NCBI GenBank assembly: GCA_964649535.1
Contig: CAZYTF010000001.1
Location: 1,521-65,520 of the forward strand
Origin: an uncultured Candidatus Saccharibacteria bacterium
GTDB lineage: Bacteria; Patescibacteriota; Minisyncoccia; Phycocordibacterales; UBA918
Direction of reading: 5' to 3'
DNA length: 64,000 nt
Positions within the stretch are counted from its first letter, which is position 1. Every line of letters starts with the position of its first letter. Shown in pieces: positions 54,920 through 64,000 of this stretch. The position numbers were made by a program, and so were the translations under genes. The notes under the pieces are model-generated. The model did no database searches. It was given only the letters and a program-made list of their open reading frames with translations, and was not told the DNA's origin.

Positions 54920-55363
54920 TTAAGATAATTTCTTTTGATGACAGGTGGTACATTTACAACCCCCAGGACCAATAATGTCTCTCATGTAGTCTTTCCCGTA
55001 ATTGTAAGTAAACTCCTCCCCAGCTTTAATATTTTTGCAAGCCCGAATATAAATTCGGTCGTCATCTTCATCATGCTCGGCTTCGCAATTTGGCTTGCAT
55101 GCATGATTTATATAGCGTGCTGTGTTTTTTCTGTTTTTGCCATCAATTACGAGCGTGTCAGTAACTTCGAAAAGATATCTCCCCCCTCGTCGGTTTGCTT
55201 CATCTTCACTAATTCTGTCCCCTGTATACTCAATAATGAGTTGTTCTTTTTGTATAGCTTCCCCGGCAAAAAGACCCAAGCCAGCACTCGATCGTTTTAC
55301 GCTAACCTTCGGTCGGTATAAATCGTCAAACATAATGCGGTTGAGTATAGCAAACAAAAACAT
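54920..55363 (-). CDS. SET-domain protein (putative lysine methyltransferase) with a post-SET Cys cluster
   Basis: GLGLFAGEAIQKEQLIIEYTG, RYINHACKPNC and EEFTYNYG are the SET signatures. C-terminus CKCTTC. Confidence 0.75.
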   Translation of the reverse strand: MFLFAILNRIMFDDLYRPKVSVKRSSAGLGLFAGEAIQKEQLIIEYTGDRISEDEANRRGGRYLFEVTDTLVIDGKNRKNTARYINHACKPNCEAEHDEDDDRIYIRACKNIKAGEEFTYNYGKDYMRDIIGPGGCKCTTCHQKKLS

Positions 55364-55374
55364 CTCTCACAGGG

Positions 55375-55402
55375 TTGACTGTAAAATTGTGTATTGTACA
55401 CT
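55375..55402 (+). promoter_or_regulatory. Sigma70-like promoter for the NrtR-like gene (near-leaderless)
   Basis: TTGACT, a 16-nt spacer, then TACACT, with the ATG 8 nt downstream. Confidence 0.35.
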
Positions 55403-55409
55403 AAGATAC

Positions 55410-56081
55410 ATGCATAAAGCCCCAGAAGAATTCAGATTTGCTGCAATAGCGGTAGATATTGTTGTTTTTGGTATTAAAGATAATACGCTTTGTTTGTTGC
55501 TTGACGAAGTCAACAGACCTCCTCATTATCAAAATATAGACGCTTTTATTGGTGGTCTTATTGGTGTTGATGAAACTGCAGACGATGCAGTTGTTCGTCA
55601 TTTGCGCGACAAGGCTGGTATTAAAAATGTGTATACAGAACAGCTCTATACATTTAGTAACATTAACCGTGACAAACGGAACCGAGTTATTTCAGTGAGC
55701 TATATGGCAATTGTCCGGCCAGATGTTGTTGAGCGTTATGTGCACTCGAGTGCTCACTGGACTCCTGTAGCTCCTTTATTAAAACTTGCGTATGACCATG
55801 ATGAAATGCTGAAAGTCGGCTTAGCTCGTTTGCAAGGTAAGTTGGGGTACACAACAATCGTGCAGTATCTTTTGCCTACAGAGTTTACGCTTACAGAAAT
55901 GCAACAAGTATACGAGCTTGTTACTAAAAAAGAATTTGATAAACGGAACTTCAGAAAGAAAGTGCTGGCACTAGACATTATTAAAGAGACAGGGAATGTG
56001 CAAGAGGGAGTTAAAAATAGACCTGCAGCACTCTATGTTTTCAGAAATAAAAACGTTCAAGAACTTCAATTATTTGTATAA
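55410..56081 (+). CDS. Nudix-related transcriptional regulator (NrtR-like: Nudix domain plus C-terminal winged helix)
   Basis: N-terminal Nudix fold with a degenerate box (IGGLIGVDETADDAVVRHLRDKAGI). The C-terminal roughly 90 aa resemble the NrtR wHTH. NAD-salvage genes lie nearby. Confidence 0.6.
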   Translation: MHKAPEEFRFAAIAVDIVVFGIKDNTLCLLLDEVNRPPHYQNIDAFIGGLIGVDETADDAVVRHLRDKAGIKNVYTEQLYTFSNINRDKRNRVISVSYMAIVRPDVVERYVHSSAHWTPVAPLLKLAYDHDEMLKVGLARLQGKLGYTTIVQYLLPTEFTLTEMQQVYELVTKKEFDKRNFRKKVLALDIIKETGNVQEGVKNRPAALYVFRNKNVQELQLFV

Positions 56082-56083
56082 AA

Positions 56084-56120
56084 AGAGTGCCGTCACCCAT
56101 TTATGGGTAACGGCACTTTT
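56084..56120. terminator. Bidirectional terminator
   Basis: agtgccgtcaccca-ttta-tgggtaacggcact. Confidence 0.55.
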
Positions 56121-56123
56121 GTT

Positions 56124-57113
56124 TCATGCTGCTTTAGAAGCTTTTCTAAGTACATATTTGTCAAGTACCTTTCGAGCATCAAATACAAATTGATCGGGAG
56201 GTATTTTCTCCCAGTCAGCAGCGGATGCTGTACAAGGTTCAGTTTTTCCTGGCTCGCCACTGTTCATCGTTCCAAATACTCTGGAGCGATAGAGAAGGGA
56301 GACTTTGTCACCCCGAGGGTCACGTCCGTCATTGCAAAGTGTCGTGATGAACTCGGATTCGTGTATAGACAAGCCTGTCTCTTCAAGTTGTTCCCACATC
56401 ACTGTGTTTTGAGCTGACACATGAGGGTCGATATGTCCGCCAGTGAAGGCGAAGCCGGGAGGGTTGTTCAGTCGCTTGACCATAACAAATTCACCCGACT
56501 CTGTTTCTGCAATGTTGTCTACGCAGTATGAGACATCAGCGCGCAGTGTGTTGCCGATTGTTGACAGCACACTGTACACAGGATAGTTGCCGAGCTTTGC
56601 TCCTCGTCCATTCAGGAAGGGGAGTTCGATGACGGTCATAAACGCTGCGACAGTGCCACCGAGCTTTTCAATCAAACGACATCCGGCTTCTGCAGTGCCA
56701 CCGGTCGCCAGTAAGTCATCAATGAGGACGACAGCTTTTCCGGCAAGATCCATCTCATTGAGATAAAGCTCATCGAGACCGTACTCTTTTTGATACGTGA
56801 CGAACACAGTGGGTGGTGGCAACTTCCCCTTCTTCCGAAGCTGCAAGAAGCCAATACCGAGACGTTCTGCAACTGCAGCGCCGAAGATAAAGCCACGAGC
56901 GTCAAAACCTCCGATGTAATCAATCGTACGACCGTGTTTCTTTGACCAGCTTGCGCACCGTTCTGCGAAGAGATCGGTGACAAGTGTCAAAGCACCTGGA
57001 ACTCCCGTCAGGTCTTGTGAATTCCAATAGAGTATCCCTGGCTTTGGAAAGTCGGGAATTGGAGTAAACAAATGTGGCAAGTCTTGCACAGTGAGTTTTG
57101 TCATGTTCTTCAT
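56124..57113 (-). CDS. apt: Fusion: adenine phosphoribosyltransferase (N-terminal) plus Nudix hydrolase (C-terminal)
   Basis: APRT motifs DFPKPGILYWN, ARGFIFGAAVA, VVLIDDLLATGGT. The C-terminal roughly 150 aa carry a Nudix box-like GGHIDPHVSAQNTVMWEQLEETGL. Confidence 0.75.
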   Translation of the reverse strand: MKNMTKLTVQDLPHLFTPIPDFPKPGILYWNSQDLTGVPGALTLVTDLFAERCASWSKKHGRTIDYIGGFDARGFIFGAAVAERLGIGFLQLRKKGKLPPPTVFVTYQKEYGLDELYLNEMDLAGKAVVLIDDLLATGGTAEAGCRLIEKLGGTVAAFMTVIELPFLNGRGAKLGNYPVYSVLSTIGNTLRADVSYCVDNIAETESGEFVMVKRLNNPPGFAFTGGHIDPHVSAQNTVMWEQLEETGLSIHESEFITTLCNDGRDPRGDKVSLLYRSRVFGTMNSGEPGKTEPCTASAADWEKIPPDQFVFDARKVLDKYVLRKASKAA

Positions 57114-57209
57114 CCTTTCAATGAACCATTCCGTAGCTACTGTACCTTAAGTTTTTAAAAGATAAAGCAATAGAGTACAAATCGTAACAAAAAAGATACA
57201 CTACATGAA

Positions 57210-57240
57210 ATAAAAAAAGCGGCACTGTATGTGCCGCTAC
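57210..57240 (-). terminator. Intrinsic terminator downstream of prs
   Basis: agcggcac-tgtat-gtgccgct followed by a U-run on the minus strand. Confidence 0.55.
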
Positions 57241-57271
57241 AGGCCTTCTTCTGTAAGCGTTTGAGTCTTTA

Positions 57272-58354
57272 TCAGTCAGTTGCTGCCCACTCGTCTTTAA
57301 CTCCTCCGATGCTCCCATCAACAGTGATTAGTTTTAGAACCAACTCTGCCATGAATTTTGCATAGGTGACTCGCACAATGAGTGGGTTATCCTTGTAGTA
57401 TTTTTTTTCACGCGGCAAGGTGTCCAGCGTAAAGATTTTAAATTTTGCTGCTGCTATCTTTGCTTCAGCAGAAGTCAATTTCCCCTTTTTGTCACCATCA
57501 ACGCGTTTCGGACTCATGACATTGTGTGCAACAGCACCGTAGCCTTTCTTTGCTCCCATTTTTAAGGCAAGCATGAGTGAATCTAGTAACGTTCCCATCG
57601 TACCGCCAATATCATCGTAGCCAATCATCGTGTGACTTGTATCACCTACAATTTTGATTGCCTTGCTTCCGCTTTTGTCACGACGCTTGTCAACAATGGC
57701 GATATCGAGACCGGGGTCTGTTTTTTCTGCACAATCACGTCCACGCTTTGACCCTCCAACATCCGTAGCGAGTATGCGCAAAATTCCTTCCTGAATCTCT
57801 TTTGCGAAATACTTCCTGAAAAATGGAGCAAAAATGACATGTGCAGGAATATTAAGTACTTCAATTGTGTCATAGAAGCCCGCAATTTGTGGTGCGTGCA
57901 AGTCAAAGGTGACGAGGTATTTTATGATCCCAAACCCTTCGAGTTTGCGTGCCAAGTCTTTTGCAGTAAGTGGCTGACGGTACATCGGGCGTTCTTGGCG
58001 TGAGTAGGGGAGATAGGGCGCGACGAGAAAAACCCTACCAACCCCCGATGCTTTCAGTGCCCCAAGAGCTATCTCAAGTTCTTGAATGCGGACGTTGATG
58101 TCGCCAGTAAAGTTCCTCGGAGTAAAGTCCCAAAAAAGAATTATTAGCTTGTTGCGAACATTTGGTTTGATGGTTGTGCAGAGTTCCCCGTCACTAAAGA
58201 CGTCAATGTCAATAACGCAGTCACGCGTGTATTCAATCGGGACACCTCTGTGTTGGAGCTGCCGAGCAATTTTTTTTGTGACAGGGTCCATGTTTCTGGA
58301 CGTCATTATCACAATGCCGTCTTTGCACCAGGAAAGTAGTTGGGGGATAGCCAT
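57272..58354 (-). CDS. prs: Ribose-phosphate pyrophosphokinase (PRPP synthetase) with a C-terminal extension
   Basis: VIMTSRNMDPVTKKIA, DGE, a PRPP-binding loop DKRR..SG, and DDIGGTMGT. Start at ATG 58354 with a GGAG ribosome-binding site. Confidence 0.85.
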   Translation of the reverse strand: MAIPQLLSWCKDGIVIMTSRNMDPVTKKIARQLQHRGVPIEYTRDCVIDIDVFSDGELCTTIKPNVRNKLIILFWDFTPRNFTGDINVRIQELEIALGALKASGVGRVFLVAPYLPYSRQERPMYRQPLTAKDLARKLEGFGIIKYLVTFDLHAPQIAGFYDTIEVLNIPAHVIFAPFFRKYFAKEIQEGILRILATDVGGSKRGRDCAEKTDPGLDIAIVDKRRDKSGSKAIKIVGDTSHTMIGYDDIGGTMGTLLDSLMLALKMGAKKGYGAVAHNVMSPKRVDGDKKGKLTSAEAKIAAAKFKIFTLDTLPREKKYYKDNPLIVRVTYAKFMAELVLKLITVDGSIGGVKDEWAATD

Positions 58355-58459
58355 ATCATTCTCCTTTTCAATGAACTCGTTTCTCCAATACTCTACACAA
58401 CCATGCCTAAAAGTACAGGAGTGATTGATAATTTGTAACAAAAAGAATACACTTGAATA

Positions 58460-59194
58460 ATGCAATTAAAAGACATATTTAAACGACTTGGGTACCCTAA
58501 ACATTCCGACACAATCTACGAGGTCCTTACACAAAGCAAGGAGACACTTTCGGTGTCTGCACTTGCAGAACAGTGTGGTGTTTCTCGAGTCGTTGTATAT
58601 CGCTGTGTTGAAAAACTTGAAGAGGATGATTTGATAGTGAGAGACATAGTCGGCCGCCGAACGTACTATAAAACTTCAAGTCCTCATAAACTTACGGAGG
58701 CAATGCGGTGTGTAGAAGATGAGTCAGCACAAGTGGTGAAACAACATATACAAACACGCGAAAAAGATGTGCCACACAATGTGCGATTCCTTCATGGTGC
58801 TCGTGGCATTCGCGAAGCATTTGATGATGTCATTACGCATACTAGGAAAGGGGATACATTCTTCCGATATACGTCTGAGCGAGATCTTGAAAAGGTTAAT
58901 GCCTACCTATCGAAGGAATATCGACTACAACGTGACCAGAAGAAGTTAGAGCGACTGGTAATCAGTAATCCAGTTTCTGGTACACAAAAGAAATCGAGAC
59001 TTGAACGTTTTATTAAATATATTCCTACCGACGCAGATCAGTTTGAGCACAATATTGTTGAACTAATTTACGGCAGTCGCGTCTGTATCATTGACCTCAA
59101 CCTTGAAGAAGTGATGATTATTGATAATCAGCAACTAGCAGACTTTCAAAAGGTGATATTCAAACTACTCTACAAACGCCTCTCAAACGAGTAG
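58460..59194 (+). CDS. TrmB-family transcriptional regulator
   Basis: N-terminal HTH (LSVSALAEQCGVSRVVVYRCVEKLEEDDLI) plus a TrmB-like C-terminal domain. Confidence 0.55.
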   Translation: MQLKDIFKRLGYPKHSDTIYEVLTQSKETLSVSALAEQCGVSRVVVYRCVEKLEEDDLIVRDIVGRRTYYKTSSPHKLTEAMRCVEDESAQVVKQHIQTREKDVPHNVRFLHGARGIREAFDDVITHTRKGDTFFRYTSERDLEKVNAYLSKEYRLQRDQKKLERLVISNPVSGTQKKSRLERFIKYIPTDADQFEHNIVELIYGSRVCIIDLNLEEVMIIDNQQLADFQKVIFKLLYKRLSNE

Positions 59195-59264
59195 ATATTG
59201 ACAGAAAACAAAATAATGGTATTTTACAAACAAAGAGTTTTTTGAAATTAGAAGGGAAAACACC

Positions 59265-60653
59265 ATGGAAAACGTTGTTACGCTGCCAGTATTAAAAGGG
59301 CAAGGGTTTATCCTGCGCCATTTTGAATCAAACGACGCTGCTTCGCTGCAGCATCACCTCAACGATGAACGAGTGGCTCGCAAAGTGAGTCATATACCGT
59401 TTCCGTATACCATCGACCATGCACGAGATTGGATTTCTCGTACTGAAAGTTCAGTGTGCCTTAATTCCAATCGTATCGATTTTGTAATCGACATTGGCGG
59501 CGAAGCCGTGGGCTCAGTTGCCTTCATCAATATCGAAGGACATAAAGCTCAGTTGAGTTACTGGCTTAGTCCTGACTACTGGGGCAAGGGTATTGTCTCT
59601 GAGGCAGTGAAATTACTGCTCAGCTTTGGCTTTGTGATGCTGCCGCTTGAACGTGCCTATGGGTACGTATATAGCGAAAATACTGCTTCCGCCCGTGTGC
59701 TCCAAAAGTGTGGCTTTCGTTTTGAAGGTACACATAATCGAGAGTGGCGTAAGGTGATTGACGAAGAAGTGAAATTCTTCGATTCAAACTTTTATGCCGT
59801 ACTCCGGTCTGACGTGTTTCGGGAAGTTCGTGATGTGGTTGTATTCAAGTCTGACACTGAGGAGTCCGATCTCGCAAGTAAGGGGTTGGCACGTCAGCTC
59901 AGTGAGGTTGGTGTTAAGGTTCAGATAGCACATCGTGCCGATGAACTCACCGCTCCATTCAGTCTTGCCATTTCTGTGGGTGGTGATGGACAAATGATGA
60001 GAACTGTCCACACCATGTCGCCACTTTCTGTGCCAACTCTGGGCCTTAACGCCGGTAATGTTGGGTTTTTGACGAGTGCGAGAGTTAATCCCCTTGGGGT
60101 GAACCAGTCAGTGTTTCAGCGGATAGTTCAGGGAAACTTTCAGGTCGAACAGCGTCTGGGCATTCAATTTGAATTTGAAGGGCAGTCCTATGGCCCATTT
60201 TCTAATGAGGTTTTACTCAAAGTACCCAAGGGTATGGCGAGTTATGTCCTTAGCGTAAACCAAGAACAAGTATATGCGGACATGGCAGCTGACGGTATTC
60301 TTTTGGCAACAGCAACTGGTTCAACTGGATATAACACCGCTGCTGGAGGACCGATTATTTGGCCTGATTCTCGCAGTGTGGTTGCAACCGCTCTGAATCC
60401 GACAACGTTCAATGTGCGTCCGATTGTGTTTGGTCAACTTGCACAAGGAGGGGAAATATCACTTGGCGTAGCGAAACTGCACCATGATATTGAACCAGTT
60501 GTGTCCGCAGATGGAAAAGATCAGCTTGAAGGAAAAGGGTTGCGCTCGGGCGATGGGGTGGTGATACGTAGGTACCCTCGTCCAATGCTCTTTGCAACGT
60601 TTGGAAGTAGTTCATACCTCCATGCATTAAAAGAAAAAAAGGGATTTATGTAA
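59265..60653 (+). CDS. nadK: Fusion: GNAT (RimL-like) N-acetyltransferase plus NAD kinase
   Basis: GNAT motif A (GYWLSPDYWGKGIVSEA) at the N-terminus. NAD kinase motifs GGDGQMM, NAGNVGFL and ATATGSTGYNTAAGGPI at the C-terminus. Confidence 0.75.
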   Translation: MENVVTLPVLKGQGFILRHFESNDAASLQHHLNDERVARKVSHIPFPYTIDHARDWISRTESSVCLNSNRIDFVIDIGGEAVGSVAFINIEGHKAQLSYWLSPDYWGKGIVSEAVKLLLSFGFVMLPLERAYGYVYSENTASARVLQKCGFRFEGTHNREWRKVIDEEVKFFDSNFYAVLRSDVFREVRDVVVFKSDTEESDLASKGLARQLSEVGVKVQIAHRADELTAPFSLAISVGGDGQMMRTVHTMSPLSVPTLGLNAGNVGFLTSARVNPLGVNQSVFQRIVQGNFQVEQRLGIQFEFEGQSYGPFSNEVLLKVPKGMASYVLSVNQEQVYADMAADGILLATATGSTGYNTAAGGPIIWPDSRSVVATALNPTTFNVRPIVFGQLAQGGEISLGVAKLHHDIEPVVSADGKDQLEGKGLRSGDGVVIRRYPRPMLFATFGSSSYLHALKEKKGFM

Positions 60654-60665
60654 ACTTAAGAAGAT

Positions 60666-60693
60666 GGGCGGCGAGTAACACACGCCGCCCTTT
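60666..60693 (+). terminator. Intrinsic terminator
   Basis: gggcggcg-(10 nt)-cgccgccc followed by TTTT. Confidence 0.5.
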
Positions 60694-60877
60694 TATATAC
60701 ACCATACATAGTGTCGGCTTGAAATTAAGAATTAATAGTATAAGATAGTGTCAGATATACACAAAGTAACGTATGGTAGTTCATTGAAACCTGAGCGGGA
60801 ACATAGACAAAACGCCATTTTAATGGTACTTTTCGACGAAATTGTACATCGCTCTTATAGAAAAACAGGAGAAAGAC

Positions 60878-61501
60878 ATGGCTAAAGTTAACAACTCATT
60901 GAACCACCAAATGTTCAAGCTTGCAGCTCCCGGCGCAGGTGCGATGGTCTTCCAGGAGTTGGATTCGAATACGTTTCGCGTTCTCCTCGCTATGAGGACA
61001 GCGCTTGTCGGACTGGGGCTTGGTATTACAGGCGGTGGGTTCATCGAATGTGGCGCTATCGACGCTCTGCAAGTGGACACCATCATTCAGACAGCTGATG
61101 AGGCCTATCGTGAGTTGTGTCAAGAGAATCTCGGCTTTGAAAATGTTGTTGATATTGATACATTCCTGCTTCACGCGCAGCCTATTGCACTCGTACATGC
61201 TCGTACAAATGACGTTAACCGCGTCCATTCTGTCAACATGTATGGCTTTCGTGCAAACGATAGCCAGTGGAACAGGATTGCTGCGCTTGAACCGGGTCTC
61301 GACAAAGAACGTACCGGACCGCTGCTTGAACACATTGTGCGATGGAAAGGGAAAATCGACCGTCGCGAGCCAGAGCGGTTTGTAACGATTGAGGATGCGC
61401 GTGGCAGATTCCTTGAACGCCATGACTTTCACCACAAGCATGAAATGCACACTGTTGCCTCAATTGCGTGGCATGCTCAAAATGGACGGCTGTTGCCCTA
61501 G
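60878..61501 (+). CDS. Hypothetical protein inside the NAD-salvage cluster
   Basis: GGAG ribosome-binding site 6 nt upstream of ATG 60878. 207 aa with no family recognised. A long antisense ORF is rejected. Confidence 0.45.
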   Translation: MAKVNNSLNHQMFKLAAPGAGAMVFQELDSNTFRVLLAMRTALVGLGLGITGGGFIECGAIDALQVDTIIQTADEAYRELCQENLGFENVVDIDTFLLHAQPIALVHARTNDVNRVHSVNMYGFRANDSQWNRIAALEPGLDKERTGPLLEHIVRWKGKIDRREPERFVTIEDARGRFLERHDFHHKHEMHTVASIAWHAQNGRLLP

Positions 61502-61510
61502 GAGTAAACC

Positions 61511-62170
61511 ATGTTGAAAAAAAGAGTAGGGATTCTCGGAACCTCCGCGAATCCCTTGCATGAGGGTCATGTCGCCCTCGCGCTTGAAGCACTTGCTGTT
61601 GCGCAGCTTGATGAAGTCCTTTTTATGGTCAACCAAAATCCATTTAAGGAGGTCAACGGCTTTGCACCAGTTGCGCATCGTTTGCACCTTGCTCATCTTG
61701 GGGTGCGCGCAAGTGGTCATCTCGGTAATGGTTTGAAAGTAAGTGAGTTCGAAGTGGTACTTCGTCAACTGGGCACTGAGAATGCAACAGCAGTAATGCT
61801 CGCACATTTTTCAAAGGCATATCCTGAACTCCAGCCAGTCTGGATGATGGGCACTGATAACTTTGTGTCTCTGCATACGTGGGGCGGTTGGCGCGACATC
61901 ATGGAGAAATACCCCGTTGTTGTGTTTGGACGCGATCAGAGCAGAGACGTTGCTCAGTATTCGATTGCTGCTACACAGTATCAGACACATGAGCGTGACG
62001 TCGTAAATTTTGATTGCGAACCTGGCACCTGGTGTTTTGTCGATGGAGTTTCTCACCTCGCATCGTCGACCTTGATTCGGGAGGCGTTGCTTCGGAAGGA
62101 GAAGCCCGAGTTCATTTGTGATGAGGCTGTTGCGTATATTCGAAAGTATCAACTATTCGGATGTGTGTGA
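61511..62170 (+). CDS. nadD: Nicotinate-nucleotide adenylyltransferase (NadD-like cytidylyltransferase fold)
   Basis: GILGTSANPLHEGH, a (H/T)xGH motif variant. About 220 aa. Confidence 0.7.
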   Translation: MLKKRVGILGTSANPLHEGHVALALEALAVAQLDEVLFMVNQNPFKEVNGFAPVAHRLHLAHLGVRASGHLGNGLKVSEFEVVLRQLGTENATAVMLAHFSKAYPELQPVWMMGTDNFVSLHTWGGWRDIMEKYPVVVFGRDQSRDVAQYSIAATQYQTHERDVVNFDCEPGTWCFVDGVSHLASSTLIREALLRKEKPEFICDEAVAYIRKYQLFGCV

Positions 62171-62176
62171 TGAGAT

Positions 62177-62267
62177 TCAGAAATTCTCATACCTGTCCGA
62201 CGACGCGAACCTCGCGCCGTCGGACACTATTGAGAGTTCCAGAGTTGGAATTCGTGGACGTTCTTTA
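62177..62267 (+). repeat. Copy 1 of a 91-nt structured element (GC-rich hairpin core gtccgacgacgcgaacctcgcgccgtcggac)
   Basis: Identical at 90 of 91 positions to 63139..63229. Starts right after the nadD stop and ends about 25 nt before the pncA-like start. Confidence 0.5.
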
Positions 62268-62292
62268 CAAGAGAAAAAAGGAGTAAGTCAAA

Positions 62293-63123
62293 ATGATACG
62301 TCGTCTTGCATTTATTATAGACCCACAAAATATGTTCATGACGTTGCCAGGAATGCCGTTGCCGGTGTTTGGTGCTGACCAGGACATGCTGCGTGTTGCA
62401 GTACGTCTGTTGCTCTATCCATTCTATTATGACGAAATCGTGGTTACGCTCGATACACACACTGAAGATCATATCGGGCACCCCGGACGGTGGTTGAATG
62501 ACCAGGGTCAGCAACCTCTGCCATTTACCGTTATTACTTCGGCTGAATACGAGGCAGGGAAGTGGTGTGCGGCCGATCCAGCGGACCAGGTATGGCAAGG
62601 TGACTACCTGCGACTGCTTGAAGCAACTGGTCGTGTGCATACTGTCTGGCCAGTGCATGGTCGGAAAGGTCATTTCGAACATAAGGTGTACAAGCCTCTG
62701 AAAGCCGCACTCGATACGTGGGAGCGCATTACTGGCAAGAAGGTGCGGTACATCGAAAAAGGTATGCATCGTGACACTGAGCAGTTTGGCGTGTTTGGTG
62801 CAAATGTCCCAATCACTGGAGCATCTGAGACAGAAATCAACATGGAACTGCTTGGCGAAGTAAACAGCTTCGATGCAACCCACTACTTTGGTGAAGCTTC
62901 CAGTCATTGTGCAAAGGACTCTGTTACACAGAACCTTGCGCATATACCTGAAGTTGATTTCTCCAAGTACACAGTCTTCCGTGACTGTATGTCGCCTGTT
63001 GCTGCAGTGGTTGATGAAAAAACTGGTGACGTGATTGTTGACTTTCCTGCACAAGCTGAAGCATGGTTTCATGAGCTGCAGGCAAAAGGAGTCAATGTCG
63101 TTAAGGCCGAAGATTACTTTTGA
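62293..63123 (+). CDS. pncA: Isochorismatase-family nicotinamidase-like protein
   Basis: LAFIIDPQNMF (compare IVDVQNDF), TLDTHTEDH, VWPVH, and catalytic-Cys context GEASSHCAKDSV (compare ATDHCV). Confidence 0.6.
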   Translation: MIRRLAFIIDPQNMFMTLPGMPLPVFGADQDMLRVAVRLLLYPFYYDEIVVTLDTHTEDHIGHPGRWLNDQGQQPLPFTVITSAEYEAGKWCAADPADQVWQGDYLRLLEATGRVHTVWPVHGRKGHFEHKVYKPLKAALDTWERITGKKVRYIEKGMHRDTEQFGVFGANVPITGASETEINMELLGEVNSFDATHYFGEASSHCAKDSVTQNLAHIPEVDFSKYTVFRDCMSPVAAVVDEKTGDVIVDFPAQAEAWFHELQAKGVNVVKAEDYF

Positions 63124-63138
63124 CACCTGAGCAATTTC

Positions 63139-63229
63139 TCAGAAATTCTCATGCCTGTCCGACGACGCGAACCTCGCGCCGTCGGACACTATTGAGAGTT
63201 CCAGAGTTGGAATTCGTGGACGTTCTTTA
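63139..63229 (+). repeat. Copy 2 of the 91-nt structured element
   Basis: Same sequence as copy 1. Starts 15 nt after the pncA-like stop and ends about 32 nt before the pncB start. Confidence 0.5.
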
Positions 63230-63261
63230 ACAATTGAATAGAGAGAAACAGGAGTGAAACG

Positions 63262-64000
63262 ATGATTAAGAATCTGCTCTGGAATCCTGACGTGCCGATT
63301 GTCCGCCGTGCGGATGAAAACGACGTATACAAGATTCTGATGATGTATCTCATTTGGAAGTACTATCCGAATCTTCGTGTGAAGTTTGGTTTCAAAAATC
63401 GCACAAAGACAGTTGTATTGTCAGAGTATGTTGATCTGCTTGAACTGCAGGAACAGCTTCGCGAAACTGCAAAACTTCAGTTCACTGAAGAGATTATCGC
63501 AGTGTATCGTACCTGGGATATGTTCCCTGAAGATTTTCTTCAGGCACTTGCAGACATCAAGCTTTCTGCACCAACGGTGTACAAGGAAGATGGACAGCTG
63601 AAGATTGATATCGAAGGTCTTTGGTTTGAAGTGACCCTCTGGGAGATTTATATTCTATGTACGGTTTCTGAGTTGTATGGTCGAGCACGTGCGCGTGCCG
63701 AAAGTATAACTGAGGCAGCACTGTGGAAACAGGGCAATATCCTGCTGAGTGAAAAGATTAAGCTTTTCAAGGCAAATCCTGATTTGCGTATTGCGCAGTT
63801 TGGTCTGCGCCGTCGCTTCAGTGTGCTTTGGGAAGACCACATTACTGAGCGTCTATTGACCGAATGTCCTGGTGTCATCACTGGGGTATCCAACATGTAT
63901 ATTGCGGACAAGTTCGGAATGCCTGCACAGGGTACCAATGCTCACGAATTGCCTATGGCTCTTACGGCGCTTGCGCGTCATGAAGGTCCAGAAGCAATGC
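63262..64000 (+). CDS. pncB: Nicotinate phosphoribosyltransferase (N-terminal part; runs off the window)
   Basis: DVYKILMMY... and GTNAHE near the window end. Open reading frame to position 64000. Confidence 0.8.
   Translation, partial: MIKNLLWNPDVPIVRRADENDVYKILMMYLIWKYYPNLRVKFGFKNRTKTVVLSEYVDLLELQEQLRETAKLQFTEEIIAVYRTWDMFPEDFLQALADIKLSAPTVYKEDGQLKIDIEGLWFEVTLWEIYILCTVSELYGRARARAESITEAALWKQGNILLSEKIKLFKANPDLRIAQFGLRRRFSVLWEDHITERLLTECPGVITGVSNMYIADKFGMPAQGTNAHELPMALTALARHEGPEAM

Follow-up and report, generated by a model that had tools for sequence, protein, structure and literature searches.

An adenine phosphoribosyltransferase-Nudix fusion gene next to a prs-like gene in a conserved bacterial NAD salvage cluster

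NadM-Nudix proteins, which are known from Synechocystis (slr0787) and Francisella and are represented by the structures 2QJO and 2QJT, consist of a nicotinamide mononucleotide (NMN) adenylyltransferase with a C-terminal Nudix domain, and they occur in gene clusters for nicotinamide adenine dinucleotide (NAD) metabolism that are linked to the regulator NrtR. In Shewanella oneidensis and Acinetobacter, NrtR controls prs-nadV operons, in which a dedicated prs gene directly precedes the gene of a phosphoribosyltransferase that uses phosphoribosyl pyrophosphate (PRPP), nrtR lies alongside, and by the published rationale Nudix cleavage of ADP-ribose would supply the ribose-5-phosphate for PRPP (PMC2330246). 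Here, a gene is described that encodes an adenine phosphoribosyltransferase (APRT) fused to a C-terminal Nudix domain. It was found on a stretch of 64,000 nucleotides (the window) from an uncultured Candidatus Saccharibacteria bacterium (contig CAZYTF010000001.1, positions 1,521 to 65,520), downstream of a prs-like gene and within a cluster of NAD genes. The combination is uncharacterised, yet it is composed of well-known parts; neither a description of an APRT-Nudix fusion nor an enzyme assay of any family member was found in the open-access literature.

The fusion resembles NadM-Nudix proteins in that an enzyme of the NAD pathway has, at its C-terminus, a Nudix domain from one and the same clade, and a NadM-Nudix-like protein of 303 amino acids is even encoded in one related cluster (L009). 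However, the place of the nucleotidyltransferase is taken by a type I phosphoribosyltransferase. With the prs-nadV operons the locus has in common that prs directly precedes the gene of a PRPP-using phosphoribosyltransferase with nrtR nearby, and the rationale would be equal, namely a path from ADP-ribose via ribose-5-phosphate to PRPP. The consumer of PRPP is NadV there and APRT-Nudix here, and nrtR is convergent here. Compared to stand-alone APRTs such as E. coli Apt (2DY0), the plain name of which the fusion bears in the databases, about 140 extra C-terminal residues are present, which are the Nudix domain. The effector domain of NrtR (Shewanella NrtR with ADP-ribose, 3GZ8) belongs to the same Nudix subfamily and shares the motif RDPRG with the fusion and FDH with the relatives of the fusion, but the catalytic glutamates have been lost from NrtR, which carries a DNA-binding domain; in the fusion E241, E244 and E245 remain, and a winged helix-turn-helix (wHTH) domain is absent. 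The phage system NARP1 (Adps and Namat) is likewise set in an ADP-ribose/NAD context and has a prs-family gene that is immediately followed by a gene of the phosphoribosyltransferase type. In contrast to NARP1, the prs-like protein of the window has no specific similarity to Adps, its partner is a type I APRT and not a Nampt-like Namat, and the genomic context is cellular, without a defence-system signal (the only match was a trivial one of the phosphoribosyltransferase loop to ShosT). The fusion gene has the following parts:

56124..57113, minus strand: APRT-Nudix fusion, a single uninterrupted open reading frame (ORF) of 329 amino acids
56556..57086, minus strand: APRT domain, residues about 10-186, with the motifs DARGF, RKKGKLP, KEYG and DDLLATGGT
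56154..56531, minus strand: Nudix domain, residues about 195-320, with RDPRG at 264-268 and the C-terminal FDAR at 311-314
56370..56438, minus strand: Nudix box, residues 226-248 (GHIDPH-V232-SAQNTVM-W240-EQLEETGL)

The identical fusion protein was present on six contigs (NCBI, JGI, ENA, Logan), and comparative genomics revealed more than 60 relatives with the same architecture; therefore, an assembly artefact is excluded and the fusion is genuine. The relatives comprised 64 clusters with 35-57% identity to the window protein, which had both domains as well as a conserved junction (V-x-Y-C-x-D) between them. Those with a name belonged to Candidatus Parcubacteria, Paceibacterota and Kaiserbacteria, by analogy with which the host of the window is taken to be of the Parcubacteria type, and a scan of genome contigs with the full-length alignment (generic APRT motifs) yielded at least one fusion locus, in Candidatus Kaiserbacteria, which was identical to L001. 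The databases call the protein "adenine phosphoribosyltransferase" or give it no name at all, and this label conceals the Nudix half. The second ATG at 57104 (MTKL...) is likely the true start, because its location 8 nt past an AAGGA gives a better ribosome-binding spacing and because it fits the N-termini of the relatives. A structure model from the single sequence was unusable (pLDDT 33), and the modelling was repeated with an alignment of 61 sequences, which resulted in a pLDDT of 96 and a pTM of 0.92.

The N-terminal half had the APRT fold. It scored 158.3 bits with the NCBIfam equivalog NF002636 (cutoff 125), while the other four close equivalog models stayed below their cutoffs, e.g. TIGR01090 with 143 versus 185.85, and Pfam Pribosyltran matched residues 52-186 (E=1e-12). 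The PRPP loop VVLIDDLLATGGT was present, and the motifs DARGF (71-75), RKKGKLP (93-99), KEYG (109-112) and DDLLATGGT (132-140) could be aligned to R67, R87/K88, E104/Y105 and D127/D128 of human APRT. The catalytic motifs were invariant across 61 family members. At the position of human R27 the family has a specific Trp or Phe. This is no warning sign, because unfused APRTs vary there too and contain K, Y or R. The idea that the Trp indicates an altered base specificity was thus rejected, as the position is variable in ordinary APRTs. From these comparisons we take the N-terminal half to be an ordinary, working APRT, which would convert adenine and PRPP to AMP and pyrophosphate.

The C-terminal half was recognized as a Nudix domain by its fold as well as by Pfam NUDIX (residues 202-317, E=1.3e-8, 35.4 bits, gathering cutoff 21.1). 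Hence, an APRT with all PRPP-binding motifs, a C-terminal Nudix domain and their fusion, all of which had been proposed in the initial annotation from the sequence alone, were recovered independently. The proposal, which a C-terminal half without a significant Nudix HMM match would have refuted, withstood this check. A profile was built from 27 Nudix domains of the family, and its top match was the Aquifex structure 2yyh (1e-21), followed by the NrtR-like 2fml, 3i9x, Bacteroides AraR, Shewanella NrtR (3gz8/3gz5) and NadM-Nudix (2qjt/2qjo). RDPRG and a C-terminal FDH were common to the fusion family and these matches. A phmmer search with the Nudix half of the window protein against 1.84 billion representatives yielded 370 matches. 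Among the best 149 of the 370, the recurring partner domains were phosphoribosyltransferases (17), Macro (5), cytidylyltransferase-like domains of the NadM-Nudix type (5) and the NrtR wHTH (1). By these affinities the Nudix half is assigned to the NrtR/NadM-Nudix clade, which binds or hydrolyses ADP-ribose. The Macro, adenylyltransferase and NrtR partners are all related to ADP-ribose or NAD, and with the profile matches they support ADP-ribose as the inferred ligand.

The Nudix box of the window protein is unusual, a feature that had been overlooked in the initial annotation. It reads G-x5-V232-x7-W240-E-Q-L-E-E-T-G-L and thus departs from the intact signature GX5EX7REUXEEXGU, in that the structural Glu is replaced by Val232 (E232V) and the Arg by Trp240 (R240W). 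Among 60 relatives the Glu was found in 59 and the Arg in all. In addition, the C-terminus is FDAR instead of the FDH, FDAH or FDTH of the relatives (His313/314 to Ala/Arg). None of the 60 relatives lacked this His, and of the 149 nearest Nudix domains at least 90% had it. Retained were E241, E244, E245, the glycines of the Nudix box and RDPRG at 264-268. In the APRT half the deviations of the window copy from the family were conservative only. As the Glu/Arg pair and the clade-wide His have been lost, Nudix hydrolysis by this copy is uncertain and may be weak or altered. Among NrtR proteins, a Slr1690 with restored Nudix signature had a 600-fold higher rate (PMC2330246), and the reversion of three mutated Nudix-box residues in MsNrtR did not recover activity (PMC6800001).

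The prs-like gene and the further genes around the fusion gene are:

57272..58357, minus strand: prs-like gene, 361 amino acids from the ATG at 58357 (the public gene call starts at 58291)
55410..56081, plus strand: NrtR-like regulator, 223 amino acids, Nudix domain and NrtR winged helix
58460..59194, plus strand: winged-helix regulator (HTH_11/TrmB-like), 244 amino acids, divergent from prs
59265..60653, plus strand: GNAT acetyltransferase-NAD kinase fusion, 462 amino acids
60878..61501, plus strand: conserved 207-amino-acid protein, no family match
61511..62170, plus strand: cytidylyltransferase-like candidate for an NMN or nicotinate mononucleotide (NaMN) adenylyltransferase
62293..63123, plus strand: conserved 276-amino-acid protein, no family match
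from 63263, plus strand: start of pncB, which runs off the window (64000)

On the minus strand prs (58357..57272) is followed by the fusion gene (57113..56124). The fusion had been placed directly upstream of a PRPP synthetase gene; the prs-family neighbour does exist (TIGR01251), but the fusion is located downstream of it. The NrtR-like protein is likewise real (NrtR_WHD, PF21906, 79.2 bits; NUDIX, PF00293, 26.8 bits), although it scored far below the equivalog cutoff of the NCBIfam NtrR model (113.6 versus 400), and its Nudix domain has a dead catalytic motif, with R-H-L-R-D-K in place of REUxEE. Its gene had been described as divergent; it is in fact convergent with the fusion gene, the stop codons being 42 bp apart, and the divergent regulator is the wHTH gene at 58460-59194, which is divergent from prs.

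The context was compared across seven related loci. The gene prs was immediately upstream of the fusion gene in seven of seven, often overlapping its start, and the wHTH gene was divergent from prs in five of the six informative loci. In four of the seven loci nrtR was convergent, either as the direct neighbour or with one gene in between, and in the other three none was present within 6 kb. The loci L006, L008 and L009 contain the genes for GNAT, NAD kinase, a protein of about 215 amino acids, a cytidylyltransferase-like protein, a protein of about 280 amino acids, pncB and nadE, and the window has the same series. The 303-amino-acid NadM-Nudix-like protein of L009 occupies the position of the protein of about 215 amino acids (207 in the window). 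On a longer public contig of the window genome pncB is followed by nadE, so that the NAD cluster is complete. Thus, the setting is a conserved NAD salvage/recycling cluster and not a purine cluster. Of the "purine and ADP-ribose salvage module" that had been suggested, the link to ADP-ribose is upheld by the affinities of the Nudix half; the purine frame is wrong, because the surrounding genes are NAD genes (pncB, the adenylyltransferase-like gene, NAD kinase and nadE).

The prs-like protein is a divergent member of the Prs family. With 128.9 bits it exceeded the cutoff of the broad TIGR01251 (113), the only model to be passed, while all equivalog models were far below their cutoffs and Pfam detected the N-terminal domain only. 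Nevertheless, by alignment with the Prs of B. subtilis and Burkholderia all Prs catalytic motifs are present (FSDGE, RQER, HAPQI, DKRR and DDIGGTMGT). Relative to the canonical Prs of about 317 amino acids the protein has a C-terminal extension of about 70 residues. Because of its unusual divergence, a relationship to the phage NARP1 enzyme Adps was tested. The score with the phage prs family phrog_619 was only 64.8 bits, compared with 128.9 bits for the cellular TIGR01251, and a tblastn search of 50,697 phage records yielded only 35 weak matches, several of them to contigs that are short, lack annotation and were deposited under the name of a Listeria, Enterococcus or Staphylococcus phage. 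Together with the APRT-Nudix neighbour, which is not Nampt-like, these results left membership of the gene in the Adps group unsupported.

The evidence leans, if modestly, towards a two-domain enzyme of a NAD-recycling cluster. ADP-ribose released by NAD-consuming enzymes would be cleaved by the Nudix half to AMP and ribose-5-phosphate. The Prs encoded upstream would then turn ribose-5-phosphate into PRPP, which would be used by the fused APRT half for adenylate salvage and by PncB for the conversion of nicotinate to NaMN. Both the ribose phosphate of spent NAD and its adenine nucleotide would thereby return to the pool. Expression might be governed by an operator-plus-leader cassette, which precedes both prs and the fusion gene (see below), and an ADP-ribose-type NrtR is encoded tail-to-tail with the fusion. 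Several observations weigh against this recycling route. In the window copy alone, three positions have changed at which the 60 relatives show 98-100% conservation, and perturbed Nudix signatures of NrtR proteins accompany the loss of ADP-ribose hydrolysis (PMC2330246, PMC6800001). 2yyh, the closest structure, is uncharacterised as well. The prs-like protein diverges unusually far, with about 99 bits against the best PRPS entries of the PDB and 29-33% identity to Prs-like sequences in phage records. Substrate channelling does not explain the fusion, because the fused activities are the first and the third step and hence not consecutive. Furthermore, the assignment of regulators to sites was based solely on motif conservation.

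The same three substitutions could mean that the Nudix half of the window protein is a pseudo-enzyme, which binds ADP-ribose or a related nucleotide and tunes the APRT half allosterically, similar to the dead Nudix domain of NrtR. It would fit that they hit positions of 98-100% conservation while the APRT half has changed only conservatively, that perturbed signatures in NrtR correlate with lost activity at retained ADP-ribose binding, and that the confident single-body model suggests a fixed domain interface. However, the metal-binding or catalytic residues E241, E244 and E245, the glycines of the box and RDPRG have all been kept, and the Val/Trp pair could stand in for the Glu/Arg salt bridge. 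As all relatives look catalytically intact, sensing is not the ancestral role of the family, and for the window copy it is regarded as unlikely, albeit worth consideration. The domain could also act on another substrate, e.g. NADH/NAD, 2'-phospho- or O-acetyl-ADP-ribose, ApnA, an oxidised purine nucleotide or PRPP, so that the ADP-ribose link would be a mere family resemblance. Nudix specificity is indeed poorly readable from the sequence, and 2yyh, the best neighbour in the PDB, bears the name "8-oxo-dGTPase domain", which was given to it without an assay. But the profile and structural neighbours with a known ligand are ADP-ribose binders or hydrolases, the fusion partners in the clade (Macro, NMN adenylyltransferase and NrtR wHTH) point to the same compound, and the gene lies in a NAD cluster with an ADP-ribose-type regulator, which makes a different substrate quite doubtful.

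The initial annotation had pictured a compact purine and ADP-ribose module, with the fusion upstream of prs and paired with a divergent NrtR, which would control it. Its four domain identifications were right and NrtR is encoded next door, but strands and coordinates place prs upstream and nrtR convergent, the divergent regulator is another wHTH protein, and the only GT-N7-AC box of the window, at 60747, precedes a different gene. In addition, NrtR is absent within 6 kb in three of seven related loci and the neighbours are NAD genes, so that this picture has become very improbable. Equally hard to credit is a reversed order of reactions as in NARP1, in which the prs-like enzyme would make ADP-ribose pyrophosphate (ADPR-PP) from ADP-ribose, the Nudix half would split it to AMP and PRPP, and PRPP would pass directly to the fused APRT site. 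Its appeal is that the fused activities would become consecutive and the labile PRPP would be protected. If true, it would account for the domain fusion and for the invariable position after this prs. In vitro, the Nudix enzyme NudC makes PRPP from ADPR-PP, and the Adps of SPbetaL1 is 27% identical to B. subtilis Prs (bioRxiv 10.1101/2024.02.11.579819, PMC13586617); with about 99 bits against PRPS entries of the PDB, the prs-like protein lies at roughly the same distance from canonical PRPS as phage Adps does. Nevertheless, TIGR01251 outscored phrog_619 by 129 to 65 bits, the 50,697 phage records gave only the 35 weak tblastn matches, an adjacent partner of the Namat type is missing, and a small genome would still require a genuine Prs for PncB.

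In the non-coding sequences around the genes the following elements were identified:

57184..57201, minus strand: operator-like element GTGTATCTTTTTTGTTAC, located before the fusion gene
58435..58452, minus strand: operator-like element GTGTATTCTTTTTGTTAC, between prs and the wHTH gene
57118..57126, minus strand: leader motif GTTCATTGA, just 5' of the ribosome-binding site of the fusion gene
58368..58376, minus strand: leader motif GTTCATTGA, 5' of the ribosome-binding site of prs
60779-60787: leader motif GTTCATTGA, upstream of the 207-amino-acid gene
60747..60763, plus strand: candidate NrtR box AGTGT-N7-ACACA with a GT-N7-AC core, upstream of the 207-amino-acid gene
56086..56117, no strand assigned: hairpin of 14 pairs, flanked by an A-run and a T-run, between the stop codons at which nrtR and the fusion gene converge
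57218..57238, minus strand: terminator-like hairpin with T-run, directly 3' of the prs stop
55375..55402, plus strand: promoter-like TTGACT-16-TACACT, ending 7 nt before the ATG of nrtR

In 64 kb, exact matches to GTGTA-N7-TGTTAC occurred only at 57184 and 58435, and the latter element overlaps the promoter of the wHTH gene (TTGATA-17-TACACT). The leader motif had three exact occurrences in 64 kb, each 10-100 nt before the start codon of a NAD-cluster gene, and follows about 50 nt beyond the operator-like element in the cassettes of the fusion gene and prs. A close variant, GTTCTTTA, was found at 63222 and about 62260, before pncB and the 276-amino-acid gene, and the motif was conserved in the leaders of related loci. 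The two operator-plus-leader cassettes are 1250 bp apart and in register. They could be aligned to the upstream regions of prs in L004, L007, L008 and L009, and in L009 a separate copy is present before the fusion gene, too. The operator-like element of L008 is a perfect palindrome (AGTGTAAC-N6-GTTACACT). By virtue of these common upstream elements, expression of the fusion gene seems to be tied to the NAD cluster. In the genome of the window prs and the fusion gene are separated by the hairpin at 57218..57238, and the hairpin at 56086..56117 probably acts as an intrinsic terminator in both directions.

The elements before prs and the fusion gene have AGTGT/ACACT half-sites with a 12-bp spacing, unlike the 21-bp palindrome with a GT-N7-AC core that is the NrtR consensus (PMC2330246) and also unlike the prs-nadV operons in this respect. 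The sole box of the consensus type in the window is that at 60747-60763, just downstream of a -10-like TATAAG and before the gene that precedes the adenylyltransferase-like gene. The palindrome TAGTGT-N7-ACAC(T/A)A was also detected in L006 (4028-4044), L008 (2494-2510), L009 (1842-1858), L004 (5472-5488) and L098 (1442-1458), and in L006, L008 and L009 the sites are orthologous. Judged by this conservation, the candidate box is probably the actual NrtR operator of the cluster.

Some additional features of the regulatory regions were observed. A good promoter-like site lies in front of nrtR as well as of the wHTH gene (55375-55412 and 58425-58462), with a -10 element TACACT that ends 6-7 nt before the ATG. 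A ribosome-binding site is absent, and the mRNAs of these two regulator genes are probably translated leaderless. The same TACACT is also a half-site of the operator-like elements. The leaders of the 276-amino-acid gene and pncB contain a direct repeat of 91 nt (62177-62267 and 63139-63229, 99% identical). It forms a long hairpin, the basal arms of which (TTCTCA...TGAGAG) are conserved and the GC-rich upper stem of which varies; a small hairpin (GAGTTCC/GGAATTC) and the motif GTTCTTTAACAA come next. This architecture was also found before the orthologous genes in L006 and L008 as well as in L098, and L098 was the only homologous-looking one of 36 stretches that were retrieved in a metagenome pattern scan for the pncB-leader element. 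RNAalifold predicted 20 pairs for seven copies of the repeat, 14 of them with compensatory changes, and Rfam contained no match to it. Two roles are conceivable for the repeat, that of a new cis-regulatory RNA for the NAD genes and that of a conserved terminator/promoter unit. As no Rfam family reached its gathering score in the whole 64-kb window, it is devoid of tRNAs, rRNAs and known riboswitches, and no meaningful match was obtained at E<=5 in the region 55300-63400.

Further observations concern neighbouring genes. GNAT (residues 16-152) and NAD kinase (about 226-422) share one ORF in the window and are encoded by separate adjacent genes in L008 and L009. The presence of a GNAT in a NAD cluster is noteworthy, because control of NrtR by acetylation has been reported (PMC6800001). 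The 207- and 276-amino-acid proteins had no match in Pfam, NCBIfam, PHROG or PADLOC and are candidates for missing steps of NAD salvage, e.g. a nicotinamidase analogue. The former contains a Nudix-box-like stretch (GGGFIE...AYRELCQENLGF), and its profile matches to NUDT15 reached only E~0.6. A SET-domain protein of 147 amino acids (54920-55363, minus strand; PF00856, 89.6 bits) adjoins nrtR; SET-domain methyltransferases are uncommon in bacteria. In L004, from a Paceibacterota relative, an ADP-ribosylglycohydrolase gene (PF03747, 10074-10505) is situated some 6 kb away from the pair of prs and fusion genes, and its product might supply free ADP-ribose locally.

Parcubacteria and their relatives live by salvage; their genomes are tiny and de novo synthesis of nucleotides is absent, and the upkeep of their NAD and adenylate pools is largely inferred. 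The pair of prs and APRT-Nudix genes in a cluster with pncB, nadE and NAD kinase, accompanied by two regulators, offers a testable route by which the ribose phosphate and the adenine of spent NAD may be recovered. The natural Val/Trp variant of the Glu/Arg pair would be a ready test of how much drift a Nudix box tolerates before activity is lost. The type I phosphoribosyltransferase is a new partner among the fusions of ADP-ribose pyrophosphatases with NAD enzymes, which include NadM-Nudix and COG1058-PncC.

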